From contig CAZRWM010000001.1 of NCBI GenBank assembly GCA_964603885.1, positions 729 to 64,728 of the forward strand: a DNA stretch of 64,000 nucleotides, given 5' to 3'. Source of the DNA: an uncultured bacterium (GTDB lineage Bacteria > Muiribacteriota > UBA6191). Of this stretch, positions 27,716 through 51,376 are shown one piece after another; position 1 is the stretch's first letter; each line of letters opens with the position of its first letter. The notes beneath the pieces were generated by a model that ran no database searches, was not told the DNA's origin, and saw only the letters and a list, made by a program, of their open reading frames with translations. The translations under genes were made by a program, and so were the position numbers.

Positions 27716-30059
27716 ATATAAAAATTTTGAATGGCTTAACTTATTATTATTAAGCGTTGTTGTTAGCTTACTTGTGATTGCTTTTTTCAGAAATTCTGAA
27801 ACTCAAATCGAGTCTGTAACGATTACATCTGAATCGAAACAGTCAACTCCATCTAATCAAGCAGAATATGAAAATCGTCTGAAGAAAAAAATGGAAGAAA
27901 TTATTGATAGACTGAATTCCAAGGTTCCTGCCAAAAGTTTAGATTACACCTTTGATAGTTCCGCTTACTGGGTTATAGCTCGCAAAGGTAAAATCATGCA
28001 CCAATCTGGCAAAAAACCAAATCTTAGATTAACTACTGGTTGGCAAAAACATTTCATGCTAGGTGCATACCTGGGTAGAACAAATCCCGAGGTTTTCGAA
28101 TCAAAATGTCTGAGATTATTACAACAACCAATTAGCTTCGAAGAATTTGCAAATCAACAACTTCAATTACATTCAATCCAGATTGGATTTAACAATATAG
28201 CTTACTGCTATCTTGAGAAAAATAGCCTTTCTATCCTAGTGATATTGAGTCCAAATCCATTAAGCCAAGAGAGTTACAAGCTTAAAAAGCTACCTTTATC
28301 TAACCCCACTGTAGACTTTAGCTTTCAAGCACTTTTGATAAGTCTACTAATTTTTGCTCTATTAGTGGTTCTTCAAAAAACATTTTTAGGCTTTTGGATT
28401 CGTCGAAAGTTTTCTCGACAATACGCTTTATTTTATTTTTCGCTACTTAGTTTGCTAGCAAGTTTTCTCATCATACAAATATTTTCTATTGTCAGGGTTA
28501 AAGAATTTTATGCTAAACAAAACATGCAGGCCAAATTCCGGCTACATTTAGCCAAAATAGATGCTCAATATTTAGTATTTAAGAAAAGCCTCGAAGAACA
28601 TCTGGTAAGTACAATCCTGGATGATAAAAATGAAGAGGACGCTGACTTAATAAAACTCCTTGACATTGATGCGTGTCATATCAGTAGGGAAGGACTTTTC
28701 TTTCCCAAGGGCAAAGCCACTACTCGACTTTCTAAACTATTCTGTAAATTATTTGGACTCGAGATTTACAAAAAACAGTTTCCACAAGATTCTTCATATT
28801 TTCAGAAAATAAAATCAAAGATGGAAAGTCAATATAATCTGAATAAATTTGATGATTTAAGCTGGAATTACAAGAGGGCTTCGAAGCATTTAGAGGAATT
28901 TAAGTCAGATCAACTTATAAATTGGAGTTTAGGCAAATTTAATAAGGAAATACTGTGGACCAAAAACAATGGTGTACCTGCACCAAAACTAGCAATCGGT
29001 ATGCTATCCAATAAAAATATTCAGAACTACTATTTTGAATTCTCCAAACGCGATTTACCCCAAAACTGGAAACTAATTAAGAAAGATAATCACTTTACTC
29101 AGACTAAGGGCCATATTAATATCTTGTTAGCTAGTAACGTTTTTGACTTTGATGTCATCTACTCGGTATCAGAAAGCTCTGTATTCAAAGAAGTTCGTGA
29201 ATTTGAATTCACTATCTATCTATTGATAGCACTATCTTTTGTTCTGGCGATTCCCTCTTGGTATTTCATGAGCAACGCTATGACAAAACCAATTCAGAAA
29301 ATTTTTATTGGACTCGCTAACGTACGACAACGTAAATGGCAAAAACTCGATATAATTTCCCGTAATGAATTCGGCCAAGTTATGAAAGGCTTCAATCACA
29401 TGGTTGATCGTCTGAGAGAAAAGTCGGAACTATCGAGTTTTGTTGCAGAACAGATTTTGGATTTACTATCAAATGAGAGAGGAGAATTGAATAATCAAAT
29501 TGAAGATAATGCAGCTGTTCTTTTTTGCGATATCCGTTCATTCACAAGTATTTCCGAGTCCCATGATCCCGAGAAAGTCGTAGATATGCTCAATAGTTAC
29601 TTTGAAATGTGGCAATTAGTGGTACAAAAAAGAGGAGGAGTTATCGAGCGTTTTATTGGTGACGCGATAGTGGTGATTTTTTTCGAGAGATTTAGTAAAC
29701 AGTATGCTCAGGATGCAGTACAGTGTGCTATGGATATCATGTCACAGATGTCATCATTTAACAAAAAATGTTTTCAGACAAATGATTTTACAATAAAAAA
29801 TGGAATTGGAATCTCACAAGGTAAGATACGTTTTTCTGTAATTGGAGATAAAATTAAGAAGCATCTATTTGCTTCAGGAGAAGCGGTTATCAGAGCCGAG
29901 CACTTAGAATACCTTAGTAAGCAAGGTAATATTTCAATGATTATGGTAGATCAATATATTTATCAAACCACTCAGTATCAATTTGACTATCAAAAGCTCG
30001 AAAACAACGCACTTGATACTACTGTGTATGAGTTAAAATTAGATCGAGTGATAGACTAG
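27702..30059 (+). CDS. membrane sensor adenylate/guanylate cyclase, second paralog (TM, HAMP, class III cyclase domain)
   Basis: Start refined to Met at 27702 (MSWYKYKNF...), overlapping the upstream stop by 14 nt; the ORF track begins at 27558 inside the previous gene. HAMP (PIQKIFIGLANVRQRKWQ...FNHMVDRL). Cyclase motifs (VLFCDIRSFTSIS, ERFIGDAIVV). Confidence 0.8.
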   Translation: MSWYKYKNFEWLNLLLLSVVVSLLVIAFFRNSETQIESVTITSESKQSTPSNQAEYENRLKKKMEEIIDRLNSKVPAKSLDYTFDSSAYWVIARKGKIMHQSGKKPNLRLTTGWQKHFMLGAYLGRTNPEVFESKCLRLLQQPISFEEFANQQLQLHSIQIGFNNIAYCYLEKNSLSILVILSPNPLSQESYKLKKLPLSNPTVDFSFQALLISLLIFALLVVLQKTFLGFWIRRKFSRQYALFYFSLLSLLASFLIIQIFSIVRVKEFYAKQNMQAKFRLHLAKIDAQYLVFKKSLEEHLVSTILDDKNEEDADLIKLLDIDACHISREGLFFPKGKATTRLSKLFCKLFGLEIYKKQFPQDSSYFQKIKSKMESQYNLNKFDDLSWNYKRASKHLEEFKSDQLINWSLGKFNKEILWTKNNGVPAPKLAIGMLSNKNIQNYYFEFSKRDLPQNWKLIKKDNHFTQTKGHINILLASNVFDFDVIYSVSESSVFKEVREFEFTIYLLIALSFVLAIPSWYFMSNAMTKPIQKIFIGLANVRQRKWQKLDIISRNEFGQVMKGFNHMVDRLREKSELSSFVAEQILDLLSNERGELNNQIEDNAAVLFCDIRSFTSISESHDPEKVVDMLNSYFEMWQLVVQKRGGVIERFIGDAIVVIFFERFSKQYAQDAVQCAMDIMSQMSSFNKKCFQTNDFTIKNGIGISQGKIRFSVIGDKIKKHLFASGEAVIRAEHLEYLSKQGNISMIMVDQYIYQTTQYQFDYQKLENNALDTTVYELKLDRVID

Positions 30060-30340
30060 TTTTGATTCTTGTATAGAAATCCGTTCAAAGCTATAAAAGT
30101 ATCCTCCACCAATGACTTTTCTCTCCAATAACCATTTTTGGTTTCAGTGATGCCATTATCCTGCTTTAGAAATCCATTCAGTTTTCTATCCATCGTTTTA
30201 CGATCGTAACTTAGAAGAAGATTTTGGGGGTCCTCCTGACATCTTAGCTCTCGGAGTAATTTAGCATTAGATTTCAGTAGATTTAATAATTCTCTTCGTT
30301 TCGACCTAGACTCATTTGATGCTTGCTTCGATTTTTCCAT
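30056..30340 (-). CDS. small basic hypothetical protein
   Basis: 94-aa ORF overlapping the upstream ORF by 58 nt in another frame. Possibly real, possibly the product of a frameshift. Confidence 0.25.
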   Translation of the reverse strand: MEKSKQASNESRSKRRELLNLLKSNAKLLRELRCQEDPQNLLLSYDRKTMDRKLNGFLKQDNGITETKNGYWREKSLVEDTFIALNGFLYKNQN

Positions 30341-30807
30341 AAAGGTTTTACTGCGACTGGTACTTGAGTGAATTCAATAATTTCGTTCCCCGAATCATCG
30401 GCAATTACATTGCGACTCCTGAGAGCCTCAAGACCCGAAACTTTTGTAGCAGGTTGATTTTTTATCCTGACATAAAAACTTATTCGATATCTACTATCAC
30501 AAGAAAAATCACTAAGAGTCATTAGATAATCGGAAGCTTCCTTGGTGCCGTTTACGGTAACTAGTTCAGTCGAGTCGCAGGGATTTATCAAAAGAGCAGC
30601 ATTAAATTTCAGTCTACTTTTTTGTTTAATACCACTTGTATATGTCCTTAACCCGAGATAAGTTTCCTTGAAGTCGAGATTTTTCACAGTATTTAATTCA
30701 GGTAATCTATTACCCAATCCGACTTTTAAGGCCATAGTGTTTTGAGTGCAAAGATGAAAACTGAATATGCATACACACATTAAAAGTAAACGACTCAGGA
30801 AATACAT
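30283..30807 (-). CDS. secreted/lipoprotein-like hypothetical protein
   Basis: N-terminal signal peptide with Cys (MYFLSRLLLMCVCIFSFHLC). 174 aa. Confidence 0.45.
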   Translation of the reverse strand: MYFLSRLLLMCVCIFSFHLCTQNTMALKVGLGNRLPELNTVKNLDFKETYLGLRTYTSGIKQKSRLKFNAALLINPCDSTELVTVNGTKEASDYLMTLSDFSCDSRYRISFYVRIKNQPATKVSGLEALRSRNVIADDSGNEIIEFTQVPVAVKPLWKNRSKHQMSLGRNEENY

Positions 30808-30916
30808 TTTGTTAAATTAGACTAAAGCTCGGTAAATATTAAATAATCGGGTTACTATTTAAGTCGAACAAAATGGCTTTTAGTATAATATTTGATGAGT
30901 TTTTATGAGTGAACAT

Positions 30917-31558
30917 CTAAGGGATTAGAACTGCCCGCACGGGACTAGCATCCGCATCGACTAAAGGTAATGGTAAAGCAATCAAATTATAAACACCTGG
31001 ATCAACCTGATCTAGAATAATACCTTCAAGAATAGCTAAATCGTGTTCACTGACAGCTTTATGAGCAGGAAGACTTTTGCTATCAGAGGAATCAATACTT
31101 GGGGTATCGATTCCTAATAAAATTCCACCTCGATGAGCGAAGTTCGTTACTAGTTGGGGACAAAAAAACCAGAAATCATGATTCCAATTCTGTGAATCTG
31201 GAAAGCTACCTGTTTTGAACAAAATCCTTGGTGCAGGTAACTCCTCGGGCAAGTAATCCATCCCAATTTTACCATCCTCACATCGTGCTACTTCAATAAC
31301 TGCACATGAACCTATATATAGATTTAGACTCCTCGAATAGATACCAGAACCATCGGGAGAGTAATGATTTGGAGCATCTGTATGGGCACCTACATGGAGG
31401 GTGCTTCTGATAGAAGATAAGGTCAAATGATCGCCCTGAGCTACATCCATTGAGACATCTCTTTGAAAAGAAACATCTCCTGGAAAAACTGCTATTTTAT
31501 CGCTAATCGGCGGACTTATATCAATAATTCGTATTCCTTCCCAACTATTTTCAGACAT
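30917..31558 (-). CDS. kynB: kynurenine formamidase (cyclase-family arylformamidase)
   Basis: Cyclase-family motif HVGAHTDAPNHY (HxGTHxDxPxH). Start placed at the second Met (minus-strand ATG at 31558..31556), 4 nt after the upstream stop, rather than the overlapping 31588 start. Confidence 0.75.
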   Translation of the reverse strand: MSENSWEGIRIIDISPPISDKIAVFPGDVSFQRDVSMDVAQGDHLTLSSIRSTLHVGAHTDAPNHYSPDGSGIYSRSLNLYIGSCAVIEVARCEDGKIGMDYLPEELPAPRILFKTGSFPDSQNWNHDFWFFCPQLVTNFAHRGGILLGIDTPSIDSSDSKSLPAHKAVSEHDLAILEGIILDQVDPGVYNLIALPLPLVDADASPVRAVLIP

Positions 31559-31562
31559 TGTC

Positions 31563-32888
31563 TTATCCTTTTTCTGGTTTACGCGCAACTACTTTGAATT
31601 CTACATGAATAGGAGTCGGTAGAGCCTCTATACCAACCGTGGTTCTAGTAGGTCCATCTTGTGGAAAATACTCCCCGTAAATCTCATTAAATTTCTTGAA
31701 ATCGGCCTCCATATCTGTGAGAAAAACTTGAACATCAACAACATCGCTTAAATTACATCCCGAAGCCTCAAGTACTGCTTTGATATTTCGGAAGACCCCA
31801 TGAGTCTCAGCACTTATGTCATAAGATAAAACATTACCTTTCGAATCCATTCTTAAACCAGGAATATTATCAGTCCCCCTTTCTCTTGGACCTATACCCG
31901 AAAGAAAAATAAAATCGCCTTCCTCTCTCGCATGAGGGTACGGTCCTACGGGCAATGCAGCCTCATGACTTTCAATCACGGTAGTACTTTCAATCACGGT
32001 AGTACTTTCAACTTTCCCCTGATCAGCGCCAAGAGGCTGATTCCAGAGTTTTCTTAAATCCGCATTGGGATACAAACCCACCAAAGCTGCGCCCGTTCCC
32101 CATACAGGTTGGTATTCAAAAACTTGACCACTGAACTCATTAGATTCCAGACCTATTGAATTCAACCACCATATTCCTTTGAATTGCATATCTCCATTGG
32201 CCTCTCGAGCAAATTCACGAGCACACTGAGCCACATCCTCAAGACGACCCTCAGCTAATAATTCCAAGATCTTCAAATTCCATTCATTATCCTTTTTACT
32301 TGATACATAATCCTCCGGAGGATTGATATCGTGAGTGAAATAACGATTTGACAAGTTACTTATGAGTATTACCACCACTCTTTTATCATATTTTTTGAGT
32401 GCCCTAAGCGTACTAGCTCCAATCGCCATGGTCTCCTGTTTCTCAGCATACATATTGCAACTGAGCATACTTGCAGCATAACGATTTTCCGGATTAATTA
32501 GCTTCTGAGCAACTACAGTGCCTGTGTCAATGGGAAAACCCTCATAATTAACTAGCATTGTGTGCCTACCGGTTTTTTTTACTTCTGCGGCATGAATTGG
32601 TGCAAAAACCTCATCTACCTTGAACTTGTATGGCATAGTTCCCAGATCATGCCAATTAGAATCTACATGAACCCATTCCGGTGAGGGATCTGACTGAAAA
32701 AGCCAACCTAAAACGGATAGCCATTGTGTTGACATGTAAAGAATCATATCGGGTTCGAGTTGGTTAATTTCCTCACGAACGCAAGCATATCCTTCATTTA
32801 ACTTCTGCCAAGCAGGACTCTCACTCGGAGTGAGTAAAATATGGGGCTGTCCGGCTAGTAAATACATTGCAGGAATTTCAAAACTCAT
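31563..32888 (-). CDS. fusion protein: LigB-type extradiol dioxygenase non-catalytic alpha-like subunit (AmnA-like) + RidA/YjgF-family deaminase (AmnD-like)
   Basis: N-terminal ~300 aa has the class III extradiol dioxygenase fold but lacks the His ligand motif. C-terminal ~125 aa carries RidA hallmarks (LPVGPYPHA...FLSGIGP...HGVFRNIKAVLEASGCNLSDVVDVQVFLTDM...RTTVGIEALPTPIHVEFKVVA). Linker contains VES-TTVIES-TTVIES. Confidence 0.7.
   Translation of the reverse strand: MSFEIPAMYLLAGQPHILLTPSESPAWQKLNEGYACVREEINQLEPDMILYMSTQWLSVLGWLFQSDPSPEWVHVDSNWHDLGTMPYKFKVDEVFAPIHAAEVKKTGRHTMLVNYEGFPIDTGTVVAQKLINPENRYAASMLSCNMYAEKQETMAIGASTLRALKKYDKRVVVILISNLSNRYFTHDINPPEDYVSSKKDNEWNLKILELLAEGRLEDVAQCAREFAREANGDMQFKGIWWLNSIGLESNEFSGQVFEYQPVWGTGAALVGLYPNADLRKLWNQPLGADQGKVESTTVIESTTVIESHEAALPVGPYPHAREEGDFIFLSGIGPRERGTDNIPGLRMDSKGNVLSYDISAETHGVFRNIKAVLEASGCNLSDVVDVQVFLTDMEADFKKFNEIYGEYFPQDGPTRTTVGIEALPTPIHVEFKVVARKPEKG
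31970..32015. repeat. 18-bp direct tandem repeat (~2.4 copies) encoding TTVIES linker repeat
   Basis: tttcaatcacggtagtac repeated twice in tandem, followed by a partial third copy, inside the CDS 31563..32888. Confidence 0.85.
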
Positions 32889-33820
32889 AGATCCTCCCCC
32901 CTGCTAATTGCATCCCATTCGACTACTGCGTTACCCGTACCAATGACTGAGCCGTAAGAGTGAACCTCTGCAGGGTAATCTGGCACATCCATTGCATGTA
33001 GCATCCAAGCCAAAGCTCCTGCTTTGACCTCAGCAACAGCCATGTCAAAAAATTCTGGTAGAATGTCGAGTAGTTGCTGGCATTCACCCCTCTTCATTAA
33101 GTCTAAAACTTGCATATCCCATAAGTACTGTCCATGATGATAAATATGCTCTTTGCTCATATCTTCAGGGATGTCTGCTTCCCATGTAAAGTGTCGATGG
33201 GAGAGCGAATTACTCGCCAGTAGCCAGGCCTTTTTACCGGAATCAACTATCGCTTGGGCTGTAGCTCTACCTAATTTAGCCATTTCTTTCTGACCCACCT
33301 CGTTAGAAAAGTAATATGGTGAATTGTTTGAAGAAATACAAACTATGGGAATATCCCAGTCGGGATTAACCATATGAAGCGAAATAATTGTCCCGTAATC
33401 GATTCTAAAATTAGGATTTTGCATTACTTTCATGGTTAATCCCTGTTTTTCACCTCCCGTCTTTATTGCCATTGATAGTTCAACATCTACCTCTAAATCA
33501 TATTTATAACGAAATAGATGCGGAAAAATGGGATCAACCGATAATCCATGAAATTCTGGTAGACCCAACACATGGTGCCCAACTACAGTCTGCCAGTGTG
33601 GGGAATGTACCAACAGTACATCAGGCGGATCTTTTTTTAATTTTTTACGAACATTATCATAACCCCATCGAATAACCTCCCAGCCACCTTCACTTCTGGG
33701 TTCATTACGCTCCGGATTTTCCGCATACACAAGGTGAGGTGGATGAGGAGCAAGAATTCCCTTAGTTATAACACCTTTAGTAACTGTCATGCTAACTCCT
33801 AAATCATCAAATAAGTGCAA
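32885..33820 (-). CDS. LigB-type (class III) extradiol ring-cleavage dioxygenase catalytic beta subunit (2-aminophenol 1,6-dioxygenase AmnB-like)
   Basis: 311 aa. N-terminal LAPHPPHL His-Pro metal-ligand motif typical of the LigB family, plus SPHW and a C-terminal His. ATGA overlap with the downstream alpha-like gene. Confidence 0.75.
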   Translation of the reverse strand: MHLFDDLGVSMTVTKGVITKGILAPHPPHLVYAENPERNEPRSEGGWEVIRWGYDNVRKKLKKDPPDVLLVHSPHWQTVVGHHVLGLPEFHGLSVDPIFPHLFRYKYDLEVDVELSMAIKTGGEKQGLTMKVMQNPNFRIDYGTIISLHMVNPDWDIPIVCISSNNSPYYFSNEVGQKEMAKLGRATAQAIVDSGKKAWLLASNSLSHRHFTWEADIPEDMSKEHIYHHGQYLWDMQVLDLMKRGECQQLLDILPEFFDMAVAEVKAGALAWMLHAMDVPDYPAEVHSYGSVIGTGNAVVEWDAISRGEDL

Positions 33821-35255
33821 TGCAAACGTTTTTAGATTCAGTATAGAAATCTATCGAATAATGCCCGCCCTCGCGACCTACTCCGCTAGCTTTATAACCT
33901 CCAAATGGAGTTTTAAGATCTCTCTTAAGCCAGGTATTGACCCAGATTATACCTGCCTTTAAACCTGCTGCAAAACGATGGGTTCTCGTAGAATCTTTCG
34001 TCCAAATAGTTGCTGATAAACCATACGGAGTATCATTGGCCAGTTTGAGCGCCTCTTGCTCACTGCTGAAAGACTGTAATGTTACAACAGGACCAAAAAT
34101 TTCTTGCTGAATTACATCACAGTCTTGGGATAGTCCTTCTATCACTGTTGGCAGAATAAAATAACCCTTGCTCAGTCCATCCTCTAACAAAGGGATCTCT
34201 CCGCCACAAAGAACCGTACCACCCAACTGTCTCGCACTATCAATATATGACAAAACTTTATCTCTGTGCGAGGCGCTTATCAGCGCACCCAGATCACTAT
34301 TTTCACAAAAAGGATCTCCAGTTATGAGTGATTTTACTTTAGCAACAAATGCTTGTTTGAATTGATCATAGATACTTTCTTGAATTAGTATTCGAGATCC
34401 ACAAAGACATATTTCGCCTTGATTAGTAAATGCTGACCGCACACTTTCTTCAACTGCCAAATCAAAATCGGCGTCAGCGAAAATCACATTTGGATTCTTA
34501 CCGCCCAACTCCAAAGAAAGTTTTTTAAAGTAAGGCGCAGCTTGCCGTTGAATATCTACAGCTGTCTGGGTGCCCCCGGTAAAAGAAATCAGTGGTATAT
34601 CAGGGTGAGCTGAAATTGCACGTCCTACCTGATGGCCCAGTCCATGAACTAAGTTTACTACCCCTGGTGGTAAATCAATCTCAGAAAATATCTCACATAG
34701 GGCATTAGCCGTAGCAGGAGTTAATTCACTGCATTTAGCCACACAGGTATTACCACAGGCAATAGCCGGAGCTATTTTCCAGGTCAGAAGATAAAGTGGT
34801 AAATTCCAAGGACTAATCAAACCGGCAACCCCTATGGGTTCTCTCAATGAATAATTAATCGCTTGACCATCCATTGTACTTGCCTGCTCCAGATGATGAG
34901 AAATTGCTCCCGCAAAAAATCTAAAATTGCTGGCAGCCCTTGGGATATCTATTTTTAATGCAAGATTTAGTGGTTTACCCTGATCAGTAGATTCTAATTC
35001 AGCAAGATATTGGGCTTTATTTTCGATGGCCTCAGCAATTCTATTTAAGAAATTGATTCGAGAGGCTAGTGGCAATTTCGACCATGAATAAAAAGCCTTA
35101 TTAGCCGCCTGAACAGCTGTATTTACATCGACAACCGAAGATGAAACCACCCTAGCATAAACCTTTCCCGTGGAAGGCTGATATACATTCATTTGATCAC
35201 CACTAGCTGCATCGATGAACTGACCATTTATATAATTTTTAAAAATCACCAACAC
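33807..35255 (-). CDS. NAD-dependent aldehyde dehydrogenase (2-aminomuconic/2-hydroxymuconic semialdehyde dehydrogenase-like)
   Basis: ALDH motifs LELGGKNP, catalytic Cys region GQ(V/I)C...(EICLCGSRIL), GxxxxG NAD site. 482 aa. Sits between LigB dioxygenase genes, as amnC does. Confidence 0.85.
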   Translation of the reverse strand: MLVIFKNYINGQFIDAASGDQMNVYQPSTGKVYARVVSSSVVDVNTAVQAANKAFYSWSKLPLASRINFLNRIAEAIENKAQYLAELESTDQGKPLNLALKIDIPRAASNFRFFAGAISHHLEQASTMDGQAINYSLREPIGVAGLISPWNLPLYLLTWKIAPAIACGNTCVAKCSELTPATANALCEIFSEIDLPPGVVNLVHGLGHQVGRAISAHPDIPLISFTGGTQTAVDIQRQAAPYFKKLSLELGGKNPNVIFADADFDLAVEESVRSAFTNQGEICLCGSRILIQESIYDQFKQAFVAKVKSLITGDPFCENSDLGALISASHRDKVLSYIDSARQLGGTVLCGGEIPLLEDGLSKGYFILPTVIEGLSQDCDVIQQEIFGPVVTLQSFSSEQEALKLANDTPYGLSATIWTKDSTRTHRFAAGLKAGIIWVNTWLKRDLKTPFGGYKASGVGREGGHYSIDFYTESKNVCIALI

Positions 35256-36286
35256 TACTCCAGATATTTCTCAGGGTCAAATTCCCAACGATCACGATCC
35301 ACATCCCAGCTATCCCAGGCTTGAATAGACGATATTTTATGACGTAATTTTGGTGGTATTACATCATTGACAATGAATCCCTTCTGACGATCTAATGCAT
35401 AAGGATTGCGAAGTTCAAAATCTAATACACCCAGTATCCATCTTGCGACAAACCAAGTCGCTGTGTTGTCCCAGCCATGTGCAATTTTAACAACGACCCC
35501 TAAACCCTCTGGATAATCTTCATGCTTAATGGCCAGTCCAAGGAGCCCATCAGCGCCCTCTTTGGCGATAATTCTCCCATCACAACTCTTCATTATGGTG
35601 CTATCTAGACGATTGAATCCACCAACTAAGTCAGGGTTACGCACCATAGACTCCCATATCCAGTCCTCATCTTTTCGGGTAACCAATGAAGCATACATAG
35701 TTGCTAACTCATTTACACTCATACTTAAAGTTGGTAAACCGCAACCATCCTTCGCAATCACACTAGGTTTCCATTCAGTACCTAATAATTTTTGTACCTC
35801 TTTAATATATTCTTGAGTAAACTGATGATGAGGCCATGTATAACCTACTCGGGACCAGCCTTTAAGTTGACAACCTCTTAAAATAGCAGCATGCTCACCC
35901 GAGCAAGTATGATACCAGCGCCTTGGTCGACGGCGCTGCTTACCGAATTGAATCATGGGAAGTGCATGAGGAGTCTGCATTAATCCTAATTCTGACTCTT
36001 TAAGAATAGATTTAACCGTCCGTACATGCTCTGTATCCCCATTATGGCTGGAGACAGAAATCGCCTTTTGGTCCCAGTTAAGAATATTATCCAAATCCCT
36101 ACTAAATACCCTCATCATAACTGGTTTCATCATGCTACGACCATAGCAAACAACATTTCCTCCCCAACTGTAGATTAAACGCTTACCAGTAACCCATGCT
36201 ACTGCGCCATGTATGGTGCATTCGGCGACACCATTTCGCCGATACTCGACTAGGGGAACCCAAGCATTGCTAATATCTGTGCTCAC
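35255..36286 (-). CDS. asparaginase II (PF06089-like) family protein
   Basis: Blocks SSHNGDTEHV and KDGCGLPTLSMSVNELATMYA resemble the L-asparaginase II (AnsA-like) family. Function in this operon unknown. Confidence 0.5.
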   Translation of the reverse strand: MSTDISNAWVPLVEYRRNGVAECTIHGAVAWVTGKRLIYSWGGNVVCYGRSMMKPVMMRVFSRDLDNILNWDQKAISVSSHNGDTEHVRTVKSILKESELGLMQTPHALPMIQFGKQRRRPRRWYHTCSGEHAAILRGCQLKGWSRVGYTWPHHQFTQEYIKEVQKLLGTEWKPSVIAKDGCGLPTLSMSVNELATMYASLVTRKDEDWIWESMVRNPDLVGGFNRLDSTIMKSCDGRIIAKEGADGLLGLAIKHEDYPEGLGVVVKIAHGWDNTATWFVARWILGVLDFELRNPYALDRQKGFIVNDVIPPKLRHKISSIQAWDSWDVDRDRWEFDPEKYLE

Positions 36287-36301
36287 AGCTTGCCTCCATT
36301 C

Positions 36302-37513
36302 TCAAAAGTGAGGGGCTACTTTTTCCATAAATAGTCGCATACATTGCATAACTTCATTACTGTTATGATTGTTGAAATCAAACCAAAGAAGTAATTTATC
36401 TTGAGGATTGAATCGCTGCCTTATTTGATCTACAACATCCTCAGGCGTTCCGACGAGAGCATTGTCGGTGGCGTTGGCTACCTTAGCAGGGTCAAGAGTA
36501 CCCTCGATAGCTTTCCAGTAATTTTCATTCGCGTTGACTGCAGCCTTCTTTGCTCGGTCACGTCTTTCATCGATTCCCACACCCTGATCATCATTCAAAA
36601 AGCATAGTACTGTCCGAGGCATATATTCACGTTTCCAAGGGCCGCCCAAGGAATGATAAATTTTGCTCATCTTGGCGTGAGTTTCCTCAATCTGCTTTGT
36701 AGGTGTTATAGATAAATTAAAAACAGACACCGGTAGTATCTCATTTGCTAGCGCATGAACTTCGGGGTCCGCGGAGCCAACTGTCAATCTTAGTTTTTCA
36801 ATAGGTGCCTCAAATGGTATCACCCCAACAGGATCAAAATCATAAAATGAAGGAATTATGACATGATCTACTGACTCACCGACGGCCTGCTCAACTGCTT
36901 CCCAATCTTCTTTATTCCTGAAATCCGTAGGTCTTATATAACCACGCTGACGAATGTCATCTGAACCGATAACCTCACCTTTCAGTAGACGGCAAAAAAT
37001 TTCAGTAGCCTCCTGAAAAACCCGGCCTTTCAAGACAGGCCAAAGAGCTTTTTCGACAGGATTACGAGGCCGAATTCCGTAAGGCGTATTACTAAAAGGA
37101 AAACGACCCGATGCAAAACCGATATTAAGTCCTCGAGAATCTTTCGCATCCATGCGATGGATGGTTAGAAAAGTACGAATCGCTTCAGCATGAGCCAATG
37201 GGCCACCATTACACAAAATATTTCTAATCGCCGAACCCACTTCAATGTTTCTAGTTCGAGCATAAAGCCAATGGGCCATCTGTAAAATATCAGTATTTAA
37301 TCCAATCTCTCCCTGAAAATGAGGAACTACGGCTCCTGGATTTTTTTTCTGAATCTGACAGGATAGATGCGTCTCTGCAATCCAGCCAATCCCAAATCCC
37401 AGCTTATCAGCGAGCAAAAATTGCTCAAGAAAATTCTTGAACATGGTTTGCTCGTCTGGAGTGTGTCCATCCACCGGGGTTTGACAAATTGCAAAGAAGA
37501 TATCAAATTTCAT
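36302..37513 (-). CDS. LLM-class (luciferase-like) flavin-dependent monooxygenase/oxidoreductase
   Basis: N-terminal MKFDIFF...GWIAETHL pattern and TIM-barrel LLM features. 403 aa. Confidence 0.65.
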   Translation of the reverse strand: MKFDIFFAICQTPVDGHTPDEQTMFKNFLEQFLLADKLGFGIGWIAETHLSCQIQKKNPGAVVPHFQGEIGLNTDILQMAHWLYARTRNIEVGSAIRNILCNGGPLAHAEAIRTFLTIHRMDAKDSRGLNIGFASGRFPFSNTPYGIRPRNPVEKALWPVLKGRVFQEATEIFCRLLKGEVIGSDDIRQRGYIRPTDFRNKEDWEAVEQAVGESVDHVIIPSFYDFDPVGVIPFEAPIEKLRLTVGSADPEVHALANEILPVSVFNLSITPTKQIEETHAKMSKIYHSLGGPWKREYMPRTVLCFLNDDQGVGIDERRDRAKKAAVNANENYWKAIEGTLDPAKVANATDNALVGTPEDVVDQIRQRFNPQDKLLLWFDFNNHNSNEVMQCMRLFMEKVAPHF

Positions 37514-38295
37514 AGACTAGGCGTCCTTCCTCCGTCGACCGGTAAATTTATCCCAGTAATATAGGCCGCACCGGGACTCGCTAGAAAAGTAACTGCATTT
37601 GCTACTTCTTCTGCTTCCGCAAAACGACCCAACGGTACTTTATCTTTCCAAGTCTCTATAATTTTATTTTCACTTATGCCCTGTCTTGAGCTAGCGGATT
37701 TAATGAGCTCTTGTAAGCGCTCTGTATTGGTGTAGCCAGGTAATACGTTATTCACTGTAATACCGTATTGGCCTAGCTCATTAGATAATGATTTAGACCA
37801 ACTAGCCACCGCCCCCCGAATTGTATTGCTCACCCCAAGATTAGGTATAGGAGCTTTCACAGAAGTAGAAATAATCTGAATGATTCGCCCGTACTGAGTA
37901 GTTTTCATACCTTCTAAACATAAGTTCACCAGCAATTGAGAAGCTAAGACATGATTTTGGAGCCCTTCAACAAATATTCTTTCGCTAGCCTCCAATAGTG
38001 GACCTGCCTTTGGCCCCCCTGAATTATTTATTAGAATATTTACAGGTCTACGATCTACCAAGCCCGACACAGCTTTTGTTAAGGAATCTGGATCACCTAG
38101 GTCTACTGCTAAAACCTCATGATTACTCCCGGGGAGCTCCTTTATTAAGCTTTCCATAGCATCGTAATTTCTAGCTAGTAGTACAACCGAACAACCTAAC
38201 TCGGCGAGAGACTTCGCACAAGCTGCTCCGATGCCCCGACTAGCACCACAAACAATAGCCCTTTTACCACTCAAAGATTGTACTACTCCTGGCAT
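37510..38295 (-). CDS. SDR-family oxidoreductase
   Basis: Gly-rich NAD(P) motif GASRGIGAA, NNSG, catalytic YxxxK-type region. Confidence 0.85.
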   Translation of the reverse strand: MPGVVQSLSGKRAIVCGASRGIGAACAKSLAELGCSVVLLARNYDAMESLIKELPGSNHEVLAVDLGDPDSLTKAVSGLVDRRPVNILINNSGGPKAGPLLEASERIFVEGLQNHVLASQLLVNLCLEGMKTTQYGRIIQIISTSVKAPIPNLGVSNTIRGAVASWSKSLSNELGQYGITVNNVLPGYTNTERLQELIKSASSRQGISENKIIETWKDKVPLGRFAEAEEVANAVTFLASPGAAYITGINLPVDGGRTPSL

Positions 38296-39138
38296 TTATC
38301 CCCCATAATTCCCACTACCAATATGATTACGAACTTCCCAGATCTCAGGAAAATATTTGAGATGCGAACGAGATTGAAGAAACTTATAACCAGCACTGCC
38401 ACCGGTACCTTTTTTGTGACCTATTGTGCGTTCTACCATTAACATATGCGTCGATCTAAAAAGAGAAAATTTCTCGTCAAAATCCATCATCGCTTCGAAT
38501 AGAAGGCACAAATGATAGTCATCACCTGGATCAGTGTAGATTCCCCTCAAGACTTCAATTAAATCGGGATTCATAACATGATTTTGTGTATAGTCTCGAG
38601 TTACGCATTCCACAGGTATTGAATACCCAAGTAGCTTTAAACTATTCCAAAATTCATCGTAAATCGATGGTAATCTACTAATTTCTTCAAGTTTTTGAGC
38701 TACTTCAGGTTTAGACTCAAAAAACTTGAGAAAAAACGCATCACGCACCCCAAATTTAAATTCTATCTCACGAAATTGAACTGATTGAAAACCACTCGCT
38801 GGATTAAGACTATCCCGAAAACCGGCGAATTCTACCGGTGTAAGCGTTGATAAAAGATTAATTTGCTTGACCATTAAATCCATAATTGCCGTAATGCGCT
38901 TAAAACCCTTTAATGCTCTGCTTACAGAGGGCTTTTGAAAAGCTTCAATCACCTTATCTGATTCATGCAGAATATTCTTAAACCATAGCTCAGAAGCCTG
39001 ATGAATAATGATAAAAAACATTTCATCATGATGCTGGGGCTCAGAAATTAAATCCTGCAATTCTAGCAATTGGGGAATTTTTAAGTATGAGTTGTAATTA
39101 AGTTTCTCTAACACCAAAGAATCGTATTTTATAGTCAT
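38296..39138 (-). CDS. kynA: tryptophan 2,3-dioxygenase
   Basis: YNSYLKIPQLLELQ...HDEMFFIIIHQASELWFK matches the bacterial TDO signature (YxxYLxLDxLLxxQ...SDEHLFIITHQAYELWFKQ). 280 aa. Confidence 0.8.
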   Translation of the reverse strand: MTIKYDSLVLEKLNYNSYLKIPQLLELQDLISEPQHHDEMFFIIIHQASELWFKNILHESDKVIEAFQKPSVSRALKGFKRITAIMDLMVKQINLLSTLTPVEFAGFRDSLNPASGFQSVQFREIEFKFGVRDAFFLKFFESKPEVAQKLEEISRLPSIYDEFWNSLKLLGYSIPVECVTRDYTQNHVMNPDLIEVLRGIYTDPGDDYHLCLLFEAMMDFDEKFSLFRSTHMLMVERTIGHKKGTGGSAGYKFLQSRSHLKYFPEIWEVRNHIGSGNYGG

Positions 39139-39183
39139 AGTGGACTAAATATAGCACAGCGAAATTCCTCTGAATGGGATATT

Positions 39184-40020
39184 ATGAATAATATGAGTCC
39201 CGATTCCCAATGCTTACGATCTGTATCAGCGCTACGATTATCAAAATCAAACTTTGCCAAATCACTTAGAACTGAATCTATTGCGGAAGAACAGCCTTTG
39301 CACATTACGATTAAGCATCACGGGTCATTAGGCTTAACACTTTGCAGTCCTGGAAATTTAGATGATCTGGTAGTTGGGTTTTTGTTTACGGGAGGTTTTA
39401 TTGAGCAACTCGATGACATTTTGGAAATTGAGTGGATTGACAATAATCACTGCGAAGTTTCACTAAAATATTTACCAACCCTACCGGGAATCTCAGCCAA
39501 TAGTATTTCTCACAGTGCATGCGGAATTTGTCGCTTCGATGAATTAGAACATCTACCCTCACGTCAAACTTATTGGAGCGAACAACCGATTCCCAAACAC
39601 AAATTTTTCGAATGGTTCAAAGAACTTCAGCTCAGTCAACCGCAATTCATTCAAAGTGGGGGACTCCATGCTTCCGCACTATTTTCACCTGTTAACGGGC
39701 TTATTAAAGTTAGAGAGGACATAGGTAGGCATAACAGCATGGATAAACTTATCGGATCTGTCTTAAAAGAACAAAAATTTGATCGTCTATCTCATACCGT
39801 ACTACTACTGAGCGGTCGCGCAGGATTTGAGCTGCTTCAGAAGGCTGCTAGATCAGGAATAGCTATAGTCGCGGCGATTGGAGCCCCATCGTCTCTTGCT
39901 CTTGATATGGCTCGTAAATTTGGCATTACTCTTTTGGGATTCTTGAAATCGGAACGATTTAACATCTACTGCCATGCCAGTCGAATTGAGGGAATAGAAG
40001 ATGAAATTAAGGATACATAA
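39184..40020 (+). CDS. fdhD: formate dehydrogenase accessory sulfurtransferase FdhD
   Basis: Conserved SACGICR Cys motif and C-terminal GRAGFEL...AIGAPSSLA region. Confidence 0.85.
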   Translation: MNNMSPDSQCLRSVSALRLSKSNFAKSLRTESIAEEQPLHITIKHHGSLGLTLCSPGNLDDLVVGFLFTGGFIEQLDDILEIEWIDNNHCEVSLKYLPTLPGISANSISHSACGICRFDELEHLPSRQTYWSEQPIPKHKFFEWFKELQLSQPQFIQSGGLHASALFSPVNGLIKVREDIGRHNSMDKLIGSVLKEQKFDRLSHTVLLLSGRAGFELLQKAARSGIAIVAAIGAPSSLALDMARKFGITLLGFLKSERFNIYCHASRIEGIEDEIKDT

Positions 40021-40366
40021 AAATAGTATTCGCTTAAGACTTGATCGCAATGATTTTTATGAATTGAGTGATAGAAACGTACTAATTCAGTCATTGGAGA
40101 CATCGACTTACAAATGGAATTTTAGCATTTTGCTTGCTGAGGTCTTTAAAGTCGAGTTGAGTAATGAGGGCTTTAAATTTTTCATTCCTCATTCTGATTT
40201 TGATAACTTAAAAAGTACAAAATTAGAATATTTGAAATATATTGTAGATAATCTGAAGATCAGCATTGAAAAGGAATATTCTTGCTTGCATCCGTCCGAG
40301 CTGAAGACTCAAAAAAAGTCTGATTCTGCATTTTTTCCCAGACCTACGGAAGAGAGTAACCAATGA
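40001..40366 (+). CDS. small hypothetical protein between fdhD and molybdoenzyme gene
   Basis: 121-aa ORF overlapping both neighbours' ends (20 nt and 4 nt). No known motif. Confidence 0.35.
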   Translation: MKLRIHKNSIRLRLDRNDFYELSDRNVLIQSLETSTYKWNFSILLAEVFKVELSNEGFKFFIPHSDFDNLKSTKLEYLKYIVDNLKISIEKEYSCLHPSELKTQKKSDSAFFPRPTEESNQ

Positions 40367-42711
40367 ACGAGCCAACCAAGCCAAAACTTGATCATTCGGT
40401 AAATGAAACTTCTGCAAAGACTCAAAGTAAACCCCCTGCCGTCATACCGGACAAACTCGGCGAGCTTAAACTTCATCCTATTCCTGATAGTGCCGGAGGC
40501 TTGTCGGCCATTAAGTCAAGTCTTGAGCATTTACATTCTGAAACTGGTCTCATAAGAGGTACGCAGTTGATGCTTAAAGCTAATCAGAATAATGGTTTTG
40601 ATTGTCCAGGTTGTGCATGGCCGGACCCCGACGAGAAAAGAAGCTTTGCGGAATTTTGCGAAAATGGGGCAAAAGCAATAGCTGAAGAAGCAACTCAGCA
40701 TCGAGTAACTCCTGATTTTTTCTCCAAATATAGCGTAGATGAGCTACTGAAAAAAGATGATTACTGGCTAGGCAAACAAGGACGATTGACTCATCCAATG
40801 ATATTACGCGATAACACAAGATATTATGAACCAATATCATGGGAAAAAAGTTTCCAAATGATAAATAATCAGCTGAAGAAACATGATTCTCCCCATCAAT
40901 CTGTATTTTACACTTCTGGAAGAACTAGCAACGAAACCGCTTTTTTGTATCAATTAATGGTACGTAAACTGGGTACAAATAATTTGCCTGACTGCAGTAA
41001 TATGTGTCATGAATCTAGTGGTCAGGCACTCAAACAAAGTATCGGTGTAGGGAAGGGTACAGTAACTCTAAAAGACTTCGAGATAGCTGATATGATATTA
41101 ATTATAGGTCAGAATCCTGGTACCAATCACCCGAGAATGCTCAGTAGTCTTCAATCTGCAGTACGCAACGGCGCGACTATCATAACCATTAACCCATTAC
41201 TCGAAACCGCTAATCGAAGATTTCAACATCCACAGGAACCATTATCATTCTTAAGTTCTGGAACTTCGCTATCACAACTACATTTACCTATTAAAATTAA
41301 TGGCGATGTAGCTACCTTTCAAGGAATAAATAAACTACTTTTGGAAATGGAAAAGGAATATTCAACAATAGACTGGGATTTTCTAAAAACTTATTGTTTC
41401 GGTTATGAAGATTACTTCGAGCAGCTTAGAGAAATAAGCTGGGACGAAATACTAAAAGCTAGCGGCCTTTTAATGGATCAGATACATCGAAGTGTGGAAC
41501 TAATTCTTAAATCTAAAAAAATTATATGTTGCTGGGCTATGGGTCTAACACAACATGAAAATGCTATCGCCAACATACAAGAAGTCGTTCACTTCCTAGC
41601 AATGCGCGGAAACTTAGGACGCCCTGGTGCTGGAGTATGTCCTGTCAGAGGCCATAGCAATGTACAGGGTGATCGAACCATGGGAATATGGGAGCGTCCT
41701 AGCTCTCAATTTCTTGATAATCTTGAGAGGGTCTTTGATTTTGATCCGCCCCGTGAACATGGCTTTAATACAGTAGAAGCTATTCAGAAAATGCTTGAGC
41801 AAAAAGTGAAATTCATGTTCGCTATGGGAGGGAATTTTTTATCTGCAGCACCTGATACCAATCAAACAGCAAGAGCACTGCGAAGTCTCGAATTAAGTGT
41901 TCAAGTTTCCACAAAACTCAATCGTTCTCATCTAGTCACGGGAAAACGAGCCCTAATTCTTCCCTGTCTCGGCAGGAGCGAGAGCGATTTCCAAGAACAA
42001 GGACAGCAATTTCAAAGCGTAGAGAATTCTATGGGAATTGTACACTCCACTCAGGGAGACCTGAAGCCTGCAAGTGTTCACCTTAAAAGCGAAGTGTCAA
42101 TAATCTGCGAACTTGCTTCTACAATTCATCAGAAGAATCCAGTAGATTGGCTTTACTTAGCTCAAGATTACAATCGAATTCGTGATCTTATATCTCGATG
42201 TATCCCAGGTTTTGAGGATTATAATCAGAGGGTCAGAGACAAATACGGTTTTTATCTACCAAATCCTATTCGTGATGAGCGAAAATTCCCAACAGAAAAC
42301 GGAAAAGTAAATTTTTATTTACACGAAATCCCAAAATGGAAGTTACCTAAAGATCGCTACTTAATGATGACCATTCGAAGTCATGATCAATTCAATACGA
42401 CCATTTACGGTTTAGAGGATAGATACAGAGGAATAAGTGGAGATAGAAGAGTGCTTCTCATGAATTTACATGATATGAAAGATGCACAACTTGTCTCTGA
42501 ACAAGTAATAAATATACGAAGTCATTACAAAGGCGAATGTAGGCAAGTTAATAATTTCCGAGTCATACCGTTTGAGATTCCTCAAGGTTGTTGTGCCAGT
42601 TATTTTCCGGAAGCAAACCCTTTGGTACCGCTTCAATATACTGCAAAAGGTAGCATGACTCCGGTATCAAAATCGATTGTTATCGAAATCATCAATGTAG
42701 AATCAAATTAA
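40363..42711 (+). CDS. FdhF/YdeP-family molybdopterin oxidoreductase alpha subunit
   Basis: 782 aa. N-terminal CPGCAW Cys cluster, molybdopterin-binding domains, and characteristic Cys motifs (LPDCSNMCHESSG) of the YdeP subfamily. Confidence 0.8.
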   Translation: MNEPTKPKLDHSVNETSAKTQSKPPAVIPDKLGELKLHPIPDSAGGLSAIKSSLEHLHSETGLIRGTQLMLKANQNNGFDCPGCAWPDPDEKRSFAEFCENGAKAIAEEATQHRVTPDFFSKYSVDELLKKDDYWLGKQGRLTHPMILRDNTRYYEPISWEKSFQMINNQLKKHDSPHQSVFYTSGRTSNETAFLYQLMVRKLGTNNLPDCSNMCHESSGQALKQSIGVGKGTVTLKDFEIADMILIIGQNPGTNHPRMLSSLQSAVRNGATIITINPLLETANRRFQHPQEPLSFLSSGTSLSQLHLPIKINGDVATFQGINKLLLEMEKEYSTIDWDFLKTYCFGYEDYFEQLREISWDEILKASGLLMDQIHRSVELILKSKKIICCWAMGLTQHENAIANIQEVVHFLAMRGNLGRPGAGVCPVRGHSNVQGDRTMGIWERPSSQFLDNLERVFDFDPPREHGFNTVEAIQKMLEQKVKFMFAMGGNFLSAAPDTNQTARALRSLELSVQVSTKLNRSHLVTGKRALILPCLGRSESDFQEQGQQFQSVENSMGIVHSTQGDLKPASVHLKSEVSIICELASTIHQKNPVDWLYLAQDYNRIRDLISRCIPGFEDYNQRVRDKYGFYLPNPIRDERKFPTENGKVNFYLHEIPKWKLPKDRYLMMTIRSHDQFNTTIYGLEDRYRGISGDRRVLLMNLHDMKDAQLVSEQVINIRSHYKGECRQVNNFRVIPFEIPQGCCASYFPEANPLVPLQYTAKGSMTPVSKSIVIEIINVESN

Positions 42712-43129
42712 TCCTAAAAATTTTAAAGCACAATCTAACAGAGTCTCTTAAAAGTTCAGCTATGGTTTATTTTGTGCTAGCCGAACATAGTCCCATATTT
42801 GCAGGTGTTAGAAATATGATGGTGGTGTTGAACTTTATATTTACTAAAATTTTTCAGTCGGTAGTTACCTTTTAAGGATAGGTAATCCAATGATTTTAAT
42901 CACTTTCTCGTAAAACTAAATAAAAGTTATACAGAGTATTCATCGTCGAGTATTTAGAACATTAAACCTCTGAAAATAATTATTAACTGTCTGCGCTAGA
43001 TTCTAAGTTCGTGGACTAGCACTCATATATATATATTGCTGGATCTACTTCTTCAGTATAGATACAGGACCAGCATAATGTAGTATGCCTACCATCACAT
43101 AAGGGACATGATTTCGATTTTTCACAATA

Positions 43130-51265: not shown

Positions 51266-51369
51266 ATTTGAAACATACACGCCGGCCCTTTATACTAAAT
51301 TGAGTCCAATTTGTGGTATGACCCTAGTGTGCTGACAAAAGCTCTGTTTTTACCTAATTTCTGTCCGAA

Positions 51370-51376
51370 TTTAAGG
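51370..51376 (+). promoter_or_regulatory. ribosome-binding site (AAGGAGA) for prkA
   Basis: aaggaga lies 8 nt upstream of the ATG at 51384. Confidence 0.55.

Follow-up and report, generated by a model that had tools for sequence, protein, structure and literature searches.

Eight genes on the minus strand of a 64,000-nucleotide stretch of contig CAZRWM010000001.1 (hereafter the window), which derives from an uncultured bacterium of the Muiribacteriota, may encode a route from tryptophan to 4-oxalocrotonate that requires neither kynureninase nor kynurenine 3-monooxygenase (KMO). According to this tentative reading, which is favoured here with slightly less than even confidence, a Baeyer-Villiger (BV) oxidation by a luciferase-like monooxygenase (LLM) and hydrolysis by an asparaginase-like enzyme would yield aspartate and 2-aminophenol from kynurenine independently of pyridoxal phosphate (PLP). 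The operon would join the kynurenine pathway to the amn meta-cleavage pathway via two putatively new enzyme activities. Its genes, in order from kynA to kynB, are as follows.

38296..39138, minus strand: kynA, tryptophan 2,3-dioxygenase (TDO), 280 aa (273 aa from an alternative start); PF03301, TIGR03036
37510..38295, minus strand: atypical NAD(P)-binding short-chain dehydrogenase/reductase (SDR); PF13561/PF00106
36302..37513, minus strand: luciferase-like flavin monooxygenase (LLM) of a sequence-isolated family; PF00296
35255..36286, minus strand: class-3 (Rhizobium etli type) asparaginase-like serine hydrolase; PF06089
33807..35255, minus strand: AmnC-type 2-aminomuconate-6-semialdehyde dehydrogenase, an aldehyde dehydrogenase (ALDH); PF00171, TIGR03216
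32885..33820, minus strand: AmnB-type catalytic beta subunit of 2-aminophenol 1,6-dioxygenase, 311 aa; PF02900, PDB matches
31563..32888, minus strand: AmnA-type non-catalytic alpha subunit fused to an AmnD-type RidA domain, 441 aa; PF02900 and PF01042
30917..31558, minus strand: kynB, kynurenine (aryl)formamidase, 213 aa; PF04199, TIGR03035

In the open reading frame (ORF) listing of the window, positions 30917-39138 of the minus strand hold eight co-directional, abutting ORFs with junctions, from kynA to kynB, of 0, -4, +15, -1, -14, -4 and +4 nt (the fifth becomes +16 nt if an internal ATG is used), and marine metagenomes, TARA among them, contain identical contigs on which the same genes are called. 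The eight genes look like a single operon, as an earlier reading of these letters without database searches (the sequence-only reading) had proposed, and both the coordinates and the abutting junctions were confirmed. Pfam and NCBIfam profile searches of the operon proteins upheld the family that it had given to each of the eight ORFs, with one correction: the RidA deaminase is present as a family, not as a separate gene, being fused to the C-terminus of the LigB-type alpha subunit.

Predicted steps from tryptophan to 4-oxalocrotonate

On strong homology, TDO would oxidize tryptophan to N-formylkynurenine and KynB would release formate to give L-kynurenine. TDO matches PF03301 (195 bits, above the gathering cutoff) and TIGR03036 (264 bits over its full length, equivalog cutoff 390.7), and it contains HQASELW, FRDSLNPASGFQS and THMLMVERTIG, which we take to be the heme-histidine and substrate motifs by comparison with the Xanthomonas enzyme. 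KynB matches PF04199 and the arylformamidase model TIGR03035 (192 bits over 203 of its 206 positions, cutoff 223) and carries the metal motif HxGxHxDxPxH. These matches bear out the identification of TDO and formamidase as the end genes of the block. Because TDO, KynB and the ALDH score below the NCBI equivalog cutoffs, yet with matches that span the full length of the models, they are regarded as divergent orthologs.

The enzymes that would normally act on kynurenine were sought around these genes. No kynureninase, KMO, 3-hydroxyanthranilate 3,4-dioxygenase (HAO) or aminocarboxymuconate semialdehyde decarboxylase (ACMSD) family occurs in the precomputed Pfam annotations of identical TARA/ENA contigs, which cover most of the window. 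A tblastn search with an approximate Pseudomonas fluorescens KynU sequence found no match in the full window or in the 71 genome loci described below. No ORF with the class-A KMO motifs GxGxxG and GD[AS][AC]H was found in those 71 loci, and the Pfam annotation that covers most of the window includes no FAD_binding_3. A further 80 metagenome loci were screened for kynureninase only; their single weak match, a PLP-enzyme ORF (locus L111), was rejected, as NCBIfam does not assign it to kynureninase and gives 22 bits to NifS. The observation of the sequence-only reading that neither enzyme is encoded between or near these genes holds to the extent that none is recognizable in the window, kynureninase in none of the approximately 150 loci, and KMO in none of the 71 genome loci.

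The AmnB/AmnA (AmnBA) dioxygenase needs an o-aminophenol, and there are two ways to obtain one from kynurenine: C3 of the ring can be hydroxylated, or an oxygen can be placed between ring and ketone. The latter, a BV oxidation, is chemistry known for luciferase-fold enzymes, in which a flavin peroxide attacks a carbonyl (luciferase, diketocamphane monooxygenases). In the third step, as proposed here, the flavin peroxide of the FMNH2-dependent LLM would attack the aryl-ketone carbonyl of kynurenine or N-formylkynurenine, and BV insertion with migration of the electron-rich 2-aminophenyl group would give the 2-aminophenyl ester of the beta-carboxyl of aspartate. Esters of o-aminophenols readily shift from O to N, and the product may rearrange to N4-(2-hydroxyphenyl)-L-asparagine. 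In the fourth step, the hydrolase would cleave the beta-aspartyl ester or anilide via a beta-acyl-enzyme to L-aspartate and 2-aminophenol. Either the ester or the anilide would be an analogue of asparagine with 2-aminophenol in place of ammonia, the kind of substrate to be expected for an asparagine-binding hydrolase with a remodelled metal site.

The LLM scores only 42 bits with PF00296 and matches no NCBIfam model above cutoff. Its family is isolated: the 281 representatives found at E<=1e-3 among 1.84 billion are essentially all family members or fragments, phmmer found no other LLM family at E<=1e-3, and sequence and profile searches of the PDB gave nothing significant, only marginal luciferase matches. 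A word-indexed search returned 3480 homologs at E<=1e-3, and the best 120 of the 3480 are at least 57% identical. The AlphaFold model (pLDDT 89.6) is a luciferase-type TIM barrel with a conserved insertion at aa ~50-75, where model confidence is lower. Its Foldseek neighbours are RslO1, bacterial luciferases, 2I7G, 3,6-diketocamphane monooxygenase (3,6-DKCMO) and MsnO8, with a Foldseek probability of 1.0 to luciferases, 3,6-DKCMO and MsnO8; the nearest solved folds have a template modelling (TM) score of about 0.6-0.7 and 13-21% identity. That the model resembles luciferases and a type II Baeyer-Villiger monooxygenase (BVMO), in which a flavin peroxide attacks a carbonyl, supports a possible BVMO role; the insertion of oxygen next to the ketone is proposed from pathway logic only.

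Two other settings of this family were observed. In the jakobid protist Andalucia godoyi, the gene model of a 1501-aa protein (ANDGO_01838, P0158) joins a 40%-identical LLM to two further domains, one class-I glutamine-amidotransferase-like (amidase) and one ApbE FMN-transferase. The model may be a merged one; otherwise the fusion could serve as a Rosetta stone that ties the LLM to an amide hydrolase and to FMN. Cyanobacterial orthologs in Scytonema, Tolypothrix and Calothrix (loci L048, L056 and L069; 55-56% identity) have neither the hydrolase nor Amn genes. In L048 and L056 the LLM gene adjoins a divergent alpha/beta hydrolase gene near a cytochrome P450 gene, a different context in which the alpha/beta hydrolase is possibly another esterase partner of the LLM.

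The asparaginase-like hydrolase matches Asparaginase_II (PF06089, 174 bits) and aligns with R. etli ReAIV (8cly). Its residues R50, S51, K54, S80, H81 and K242 are unchanged in all 42 homologs compared, and alignment matches its residues to Arg47, Ser48, Lys51, Ser80 and Lys263 of ReAV. In ReAV, Arg47 holds the alpha-carboxylate of L-asparagine, Ser48 is the nucleophile, all five residues are essential according to mutagenesis, and the mechanism proceeds via a beta-acyl-enzyme (PMC12292245). The zinc site of ReAV, Cys135-Lys138-Cys189, is not conserved: it corresponds to C128/E131/C182 in the window, and the triad in hydrolases of the clusters is C/E/C in 16, C/K/C in 15, S/H/D in nine and S/Q/D in two. 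As the essential residues of ReAV are kept, including the arginine that binds the alpha-carboxylate, a beta-aspartyl-X substrate is to be expected, and kynurenine with an inserted oxygen fits exactly. From these residues, the protein is proposed to be a beta-aspartyl 2-aminophenyl ester/N4-(2-hydroxyphenyl)asparagine hydrolase. The idea that it might be an analogue of kynureninase was rejected because a serine hydrolase cannot stabilize an alanyl carbanion. Three homologs (L084, L085 and L094) occur in unrelated contexts with no LLM or Amn neighbours, and were treated as dispersed copies.

The remaining steps are predicted from strong homology. AmnB/AmnA would open the ring of 2-aminophenol to give 2-aminomuconate-6-semialdehyde, the AmnC-type ALDH would convert this to 2-aminomuconate, and the RidA domain fused to AmnA would deaminate the latter to 4-oxalocrotonate and ammonium. 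In the PDB, AmnB matches the solved beta subunits of 2-aminophenol and 2-amino-5-chlorophenol 1,6-dioxygenases (3vsg_B, 1.4e-116; 8ihg_A, 2e-114; 7txy_B, 4e-103). It is 57% identical to two solved enzymes, and its iron ligands H13, H62 and E251 and catalytic H195 are invariant; this identity to enzymes proven to act on 2-aminophenol, together with the retention of the catalytic residues, supports the predicted activity. The AmnB proteins of the clusters form a sister clade to the canonical enzymes with seven fixed substitutions, including W196R, F257L and H261L. The alpha-subunit part of the fusion protein (aa 1-~285) matches 7txy_A (5e-52) and 3vsg_A (3e-42) over aa 7-270, and its RidA domain (aa ~300-441; PF01042, 91 bits) has as its best RidA-type match the 2-aminomuconate deaminase 6izh (1e-22 over aa 310-438). 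AmnA and RidA are fused in 21 genome loci and split in ten; in the window, a perfect tandem repeat of 18 nt x 2.4 (31968-32011) encodes TTVIES repeats in the linker between them. The ALDH scores 555 bits with PF00171 and 552 bits with TIGR03216, and its top seven PDB matches are all 2-aminomuconate-6-semialdehyde dehydrogenases (1.5e-138 for 7bzv to 5e-130; 4i1w, 1e-134). The Amn-type identity that had been suggested for the dioxygenase, ALDH and deaminase is thus strongly supported. None of the lower-pathway genes amnEFGH (4-oxalocrotonate decarboxylase, hydratase, aldolase and acetaldehyde dehydrogenase) is found in the annotated parts of the window.

Conservation of the module

Gene neighbourhoods were compared in two sets of loci, whose counts are not phylogenetically independent. 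The forward set consists of 71 genome loci anchored on the LLM and searched by tblastn with the window proteins, 37 of which have enough flanking sequence; the reverse set consists of 80 metagenome loci anchored on the hydrolase, with 44, 32 or 21 informative loci depending on the gene. The block is conserved as a module in both sets, which answers the question of neighbourhood conservation raised by the sequence-only reading. Among the 37 well-flanked genome loci, the hydrolase is present in 24, the ALDH in 28, AmnB with AmnA in 22, RidA in 24, and TDO or KynB in 12, and every AmnB-bearing genome locus (32/32) has the hydrolase. In the reverse set, 40 of 44 informative loci contain the LLM, which is directly upstream of the hydrolase in 37, and AmnB (30/32), ALDH (31/32), RidA (28/32) and TDO or KynB (12/21) accompany the hydrolase. 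Of 69 genome loci, 19 have TDO or KynB within 10 kb, as do 12 of 21 metagenome loci; in many, TDO immediately precedes the LLM or SDR-LLM, and KynB immediately follows the LLM.

The LLM, hydrolase, ALDH, AmnB, AmnA and RidA genes travel together in at least eight phyla (Bdellovibrionota, Acidobacteriota, Sericytochromatia, Cyanobacteria, Planctomycetota, Myxococcota, Eisenbacteria and Proteobacteria). Bdellovibrionota make up the majority of the 71 genome loci, which also include Oligoflexia, Bacteriovoracia, Thermoanaerobaculia, Holophagae, heterocystous cyanobacteria and Gammaproteobacteria, among them an Alteromonas isolate. Since the same gene set recurs in about 150 loci, the arrangement is far beyond chance, and since gene order varies, including one divergent architecture in which SDR-ALDH-AmnB-AmnA-hydrolase-RidA-TDO faces LLM-KynB-PurT, the association reflects function and not just shared ancestry. 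The operon has a higher GC content (0.416 in 30917-39138) than the remaining window (0.382), which together with the spread across phyla is compatible with horizontal acquisition.

Reduced forms of the module also exist. A metagenome-assembled genome (MAG) of a gammaproteobacterium (L049) has LLM-hydrolase-KynB with no Amn genes nearby, and two short loci, L062 of Alteromonas sp. a30 and L061, pair the LLM with the hydrolase and likewise lack Amn genes in the available DNA; the asparaginase-like gene in these three loci is 44-46% identical. Such Amn-less LLM-hydrolase(-KynB) modules fit a self-contained unit that releases 2-aminophenol. One locus (L064), from a MAG labelled Streptomyces griseus, has 47% GC and Bdellovibrionales-like synteny with an RNase T neighbour; the label is probably a binning error. 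Other recurrent neighbours were dismissed as housekeeping genes or lineage synteny and not pathway genes: RNase T, Smr, M24 peptidase, AdoHcy hydrolase, ABC-F, PPase, SWIB and Ser/Thr kinase, as well as outer membrane proteins, MacB/HlyD, SNase, FKBP, PIN and M15 peptidase.

The SDR is directly upstream of the LLM in most loci and absent from many clusters (21 of the 37 well-flanked genome loci carry it), so it is dispensable for the LLM. It has a glycine-rich dinucleotide motif, but the catalytic Tyr-x3-Lys is replaced; a conserved STSV...LGVSNxxR motif is shared by 39 homologs and the closest PDB entries, 5VPS and 5IDX, which are named only generically as SDR. A pair of FAA_hydrolase genes (4-oxalocrotonate decarboxylase/hydratase-like) occurs in seven of the 71 loci (L008, L009, L013, L015, L026, L032 and L035) and in none of the 39 that have the SDR (hypergeometric P about 0.0025 assuming independent loci, which they are not). 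Because the two never co-occur, the SDR may take the place of the decarboxylase/hydratase branch, perhaps as a reductase of 4-oxalocrotonate. It may be either a reductase that acts after the deamination of 2-aminomuconate or a flavin reductase for the LLM; its lack of Tyr-x3-Lys, frequent absence and failure to occur with the FAA_hydrolase pair make it unlikely to be an obligatory partner in hydroxylation.

Weighing the proposed route against its rivals

The BV scheme gives roles to seven of the eight genes and places the tightest-linked, LLM and hydrolase, in consecutive steps. The sequence-only reading had instead suggested that kynurenine is hydroxylated by the LLM/SDR pair and that 3-hydroxykynurenine is then ring-cleaved. 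In that form the suggestion is not supported here: it has no role for the hydrolase, the tightest partner of the LLM, and its SDR lacks Tyr-x3-Lys. A BV oxidation followed by beta-aspartyl hydrolysis explains more of the genes. Two other fates of kynurenine were also considered: oxidative decarboxylation by the LLM in the manner of an amino-acid 2-monooxygenase was rejected because it yields no o-aminophenol for AmnBA, and N-hydroxylation with a Bamberger-type rearrangement would involve a mutase, for which no gene is present.

Several points weigh against the proposed route. Its third and fourth steps are putative, and the LLM is too distant from any characterized enzyme (TM about 0.6, 14-21% identity) for its chemistry to be assigned. 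No dedicated flavin reductase was identified in the window, and the annotations that cover most of it include no PF01613, PF03358 or Fre-type gene; a Fre-like flavin reductase gene is found near the cluster in 11 Bdellovibrionales loci, which may be mere lineage synteny. TDO or KynB is within 10 kb in only about a third to half of informative loci. Two loci (L026 and L035) consist of TDO-LLM-ALDH-RidA-KynB and the FAA_hydrolase pair with no hydrolase or AmnBA within 10 kb, an architecture that is not explained by the preferred model unless the missing genes lie elsewhere in the genome. The absence of kynureninase and KMO applies to the window and the loci only, and the kynureninase screen relied on a query sequence that was approximate. 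Finally, the W196R substitution beside the catalytic His195 of AmnB could mean that its substrate is anionic and larger than 2-aminophenol, 3-hydroxykynurenine for example.

That last point is accommodated by the strongest alternative, a refinement of the hydroxylation idea in which the LLM is a non-homologous kynurenine 3-hydroxylase, AmnBA cleaves 3-hydroxykynurenine, and the hydrolase is a C-C hydrolase that attacks the 3-acyl-2-aminomuconate so formed (chemically a vinylogous amide of the beta-carboxyl of aspartate); aspartate and 2-aminomuconate (semialdehyde) would be formed, the latter to be processed by AmnC and AmnD. This alternative makes equal use of the gene set and of the co-occurrence data, its production of aspartate is just as well suited to the Asn/Asp-binding residues of the hydrolase, and W196R, F257L and H261L, invariant in the AmnBs of the clusters, could provide room or charge for an amino-acid side chain. 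We nevertheless consider it unlikely, though deserving of serious attention, on grounds both chemical and genomic: aromatic C-hydroxylation is rare for luciferase-type monooxygenases, C-C hydrolysis by an asparaginase is a larger mechanistic jump than hydrolysis of an ester or amide, the LLM and hydrolase genes that are adjacent in 37 of 44 loci would act non-consecutively, the hydrolases of the Amn-less modules (L049, L061 and L062) would have no substrate, and the close relatives of AmnB (57% identity) have small aminophenols as substrates. It is also conceivable, if improbable, that the pathway is conventional, with kynureninase and possibly KMO, HAO and ACMSD encoded elsewhere, with the ALDH, RidA and AmnBA handling 2-aminomuconate semialdehyde or aminophenols, and with the LLM, hydrolase and SDR having peripheral roles (detoxification or a side product). 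The canonical genes were sought in the loci only, the ALDH, RidA and FAA_hydrolase pair are common to the 3-hydroxyanthranilate pathway, and L026 and L035 have neither the hydrolase nor AmnBA nearby. Yet kynureninase, KMO, HAO and ACMSD are not among the recurrent neighbours in approximately 150 loci, though TDO and KynB often are; the LLM and hydrolase, peripheral on this view, show the tightest linkage in the module; and the canonical route has no need of an AmnBA-type enzyme.

The remaining alternatives detach the core of the module from tryptophan or from catabolism. SDR, LLM, hydrolase and Amn enzymes might degrade some other aryl ketone, anilide or aminophenol precursor, natural or xenobiotic, with TDO and KynB as occasional neighbours. 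Consistent with this, TDO and KynB are not within 10 kb in half or more of the informative loci, and what natural compound gives rise to the 2-aminophenol of amn-type pathways is stated to be unknown (PMC10470539). We judge this distinctly improbable, as the genes for TDO and KynB are single-copy and rare, and their presence in 19/69 genome loci and 12/21 metagenome loci, often as the first and last genes of the same operon as here, is far above chance; moreover, a conserved site of the asparaginase type requires a beta-aspartyl substrate, of which kynurenine is the obvious natural source. A biosynthetic module, supplying 2-aminophenol for phenoxazinone pigments or toxins or making picolinate by cyclization of 2-aminomuconate semialdehyde, has very little probability: in the window and in most loci, the ring-cleavage enzyme, ALDH and deaminase would destroy 2-aminophenol and prevent picolinate formation, and no oxidase, NRPS or tailoring genes are present. 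What speaks for biosynthesis is the occurrence of Amn-less LLM-hydrolase(-KynB) modules in Gammaproteobacteria including Alteromonas, strains of which make questiomycin, a 2-aminophenol dimer (PMC6943571); the LLM-hydrolase pair could be the source of the aminophenol in Alteromonas.

Surroundings, significance and comparison with known systems

Divergent from the operon, 45 nt from the start of kynA, is a set of genes with a possible connection to formate.

39184..42711, plus strand: FdhD, DUF7009 and an FdhF/YdeP-family molybdoenzyme; TIGR00129 (165 bits) and TIGR01701 (925 bits), both above cutoff

The FdhF/YdeP-type enzyme is a possible sink, by oxidation, for the formate released by KynB, an association that is tentative; an FdhD neighbour is retained in loci L007 and L014. 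In four other loci (L047, L051, L057 and L077) the gene directly after LLM-KynB encodes the formate-dependent GAR transformylase PurT, a second independent link of the module to formate. Both the adjacent FdhD/FdhF genes and PurT fit the release of formate by KynB.

A scan of 29800-39400 for promoters and terminators gave counts not above those of shuffled sequences, and an Rfam scan of 29000-43500 found no riboswitch or leader. After kynB on the minus strand (30056-30807) are two small ORFs, one of ~150-174 aa whose N-terminus resembles a signal peptide and one of 94 aa; both are called on all identical contigs, and neither has a Pfam or NCBIfam match. Converging on the end of the operon are two large tandem adenylate/guanylate cyclase genes (24851-30059, plus strand; HAMP + Guanylate_cyc, and Guanylate_cyc). 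Farther away (46684-56145, plus strand), a fused hydantoinase A/B gene (1178 aa, oxoprolinase-like) precedes a PrkA, DUF444 and SpoVR triad; all of these genes are unrelated to the operon.

The sequence-only reading had remarked that this gene combination was not known as a kynurenine pathway, and a full-text search of the literature, in which coverage of subscription journals is partial, found no description of the combination or of a route from kynurenine to 2-aminophenol. To our knowledge, tryptophan catabolism beyond kynurenine has been described only via kynureninase, KMO or transamination. If correct, the proposed route would be a third bacterial exit from kynurenine and a new, PLP-independent branch of a textbook pathway, and it would provide a natural physiological substrate for the "xenobiotic" amn meta-cleavage pathway. 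This would explain why close relatives of the 2-aminophenol dioxygenase system, which is known from isolates that degrade nitroaromatics, are common in bacteria with no exposure to nitrobenzene. Two new enzyme activities would be defined, and functions would be assigned to two large uncharacterized families, the isolated LLM clade and a clade of class-3 "asparaginases". The main carriers of the pathway would be predatory Bdellovibrionota and MAGs of marine and soil origin, with a bearing on the use of prey amino acids, and the LLM-hydrolase pair alone could supply 2-aminophenol biosynthetically for phenoxazinone toxins.

The canonical bacterial kynurenine pathway, reportedly set out by Kurnasov et al. 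in 2003 and Colabroy and Begley in 2005, has an anthranilate branch (kynA-kynB-kynU) and a branch through KMO, kynureninase, HAO and ACMSD to 2-aminomuconate. The operon route would have in common with it TDO, arylformamidase and the late intermediates 2-aminomuconate semialdehyde, 2-aminomuconate and 4-oxalocrotonate. In contrast, the PLP-dependent kynureninase, class-A KMO, cupin-type HAO and ACMSD of the canonical pathway were not found in the operon, the side chain would leave as aspartate instead of alanine, and the ring as 2-aminophenol instead of anthranilate or 3-hydroxyanthranilate.

From its other end, the operon compares with the amn/cnb/nbz clusters of Pseudomonas sp. AP-3, P. pseudoalcaligenes JS45, Comamonas CNB-1 and Burkholderia xenovorans LB400 and with the ARO microcompartment locus of Actinobacteria. 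AmnB, AmnA, the AmnC-type ALDH and the RidA-type deaminase are common to both, and are predicted to be co-transcribed here. Whereas the 2-aminophenol of the amn pathway comes from nitrobenzene or chloronitrobenzene, that of the operon would derive from an amino acid, and AmnA and AmnD are fused in the operon, unlike in the described clusters. We know of no described amn cluster with TDO, KynB, an LLM or an asparaginase-like hydrolase. The paper on the ARO microcompartment mentions no tryptophan, kynurenine, flavin monooxygenase or asparaginase (PMC10470539).

Each of the two putatively new enzymes has a characterized but distant counterpart. The type II BVMOs (2,5- and 3,6-diketocamphane monooxygenases) have the TIM-barrel LLM fold in common with the operon LLM (3,6-DKCMO, E 3e-12, TM 0.58-0.64) and differ from it in sequence (13-16% identity), the operon LLM being isolated and having the insertion at aa ~50-75. 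The class 3 L-asparaginases ReAIV and ReAV belong to the same PF06089 fold family as the operon hydrolase and have equivalent catalytic Arg, Ser and Lys residues, but they are distant (phmmer E about 4e-17), the zinc triad is changed, and whereas their leaving group is ammonia, the operon context suggests a bulky aryl leaving group.

At the level of pathway logic, the closest parallel is the degradation of 4-hydroxyacetophenone by P. fluorescens ACB, which uses the BVMO HAPMO, an aryl ester hydrolase and a ring-cleaving dioxygenase. The proposed sequence of aryl ketone to aryl ester, to phenol and acid, and then to ring cleavage is alike, by analogy and not homology: HAPMO is a single-component FAD/NADPH type I BVMO that works with an alpha/beta-hydrolase esterase, whereas the operon would use a luciferase-fold, two-component type of monooxygenase and a class-3 asparaginase homolog. 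The same combination of enzyme classes is found in the Rut pyrimidine pathway (RutA, an LLM; RutB, an amidohydrolase; RutC, a RidA protein; and the SDR YdfG). The families that represent each class are different, there is no equivalog match to RutA or RutB, and the RidA domain of the operon, fused to AmnA, is nearest to 2-aminomuconate deaminase.

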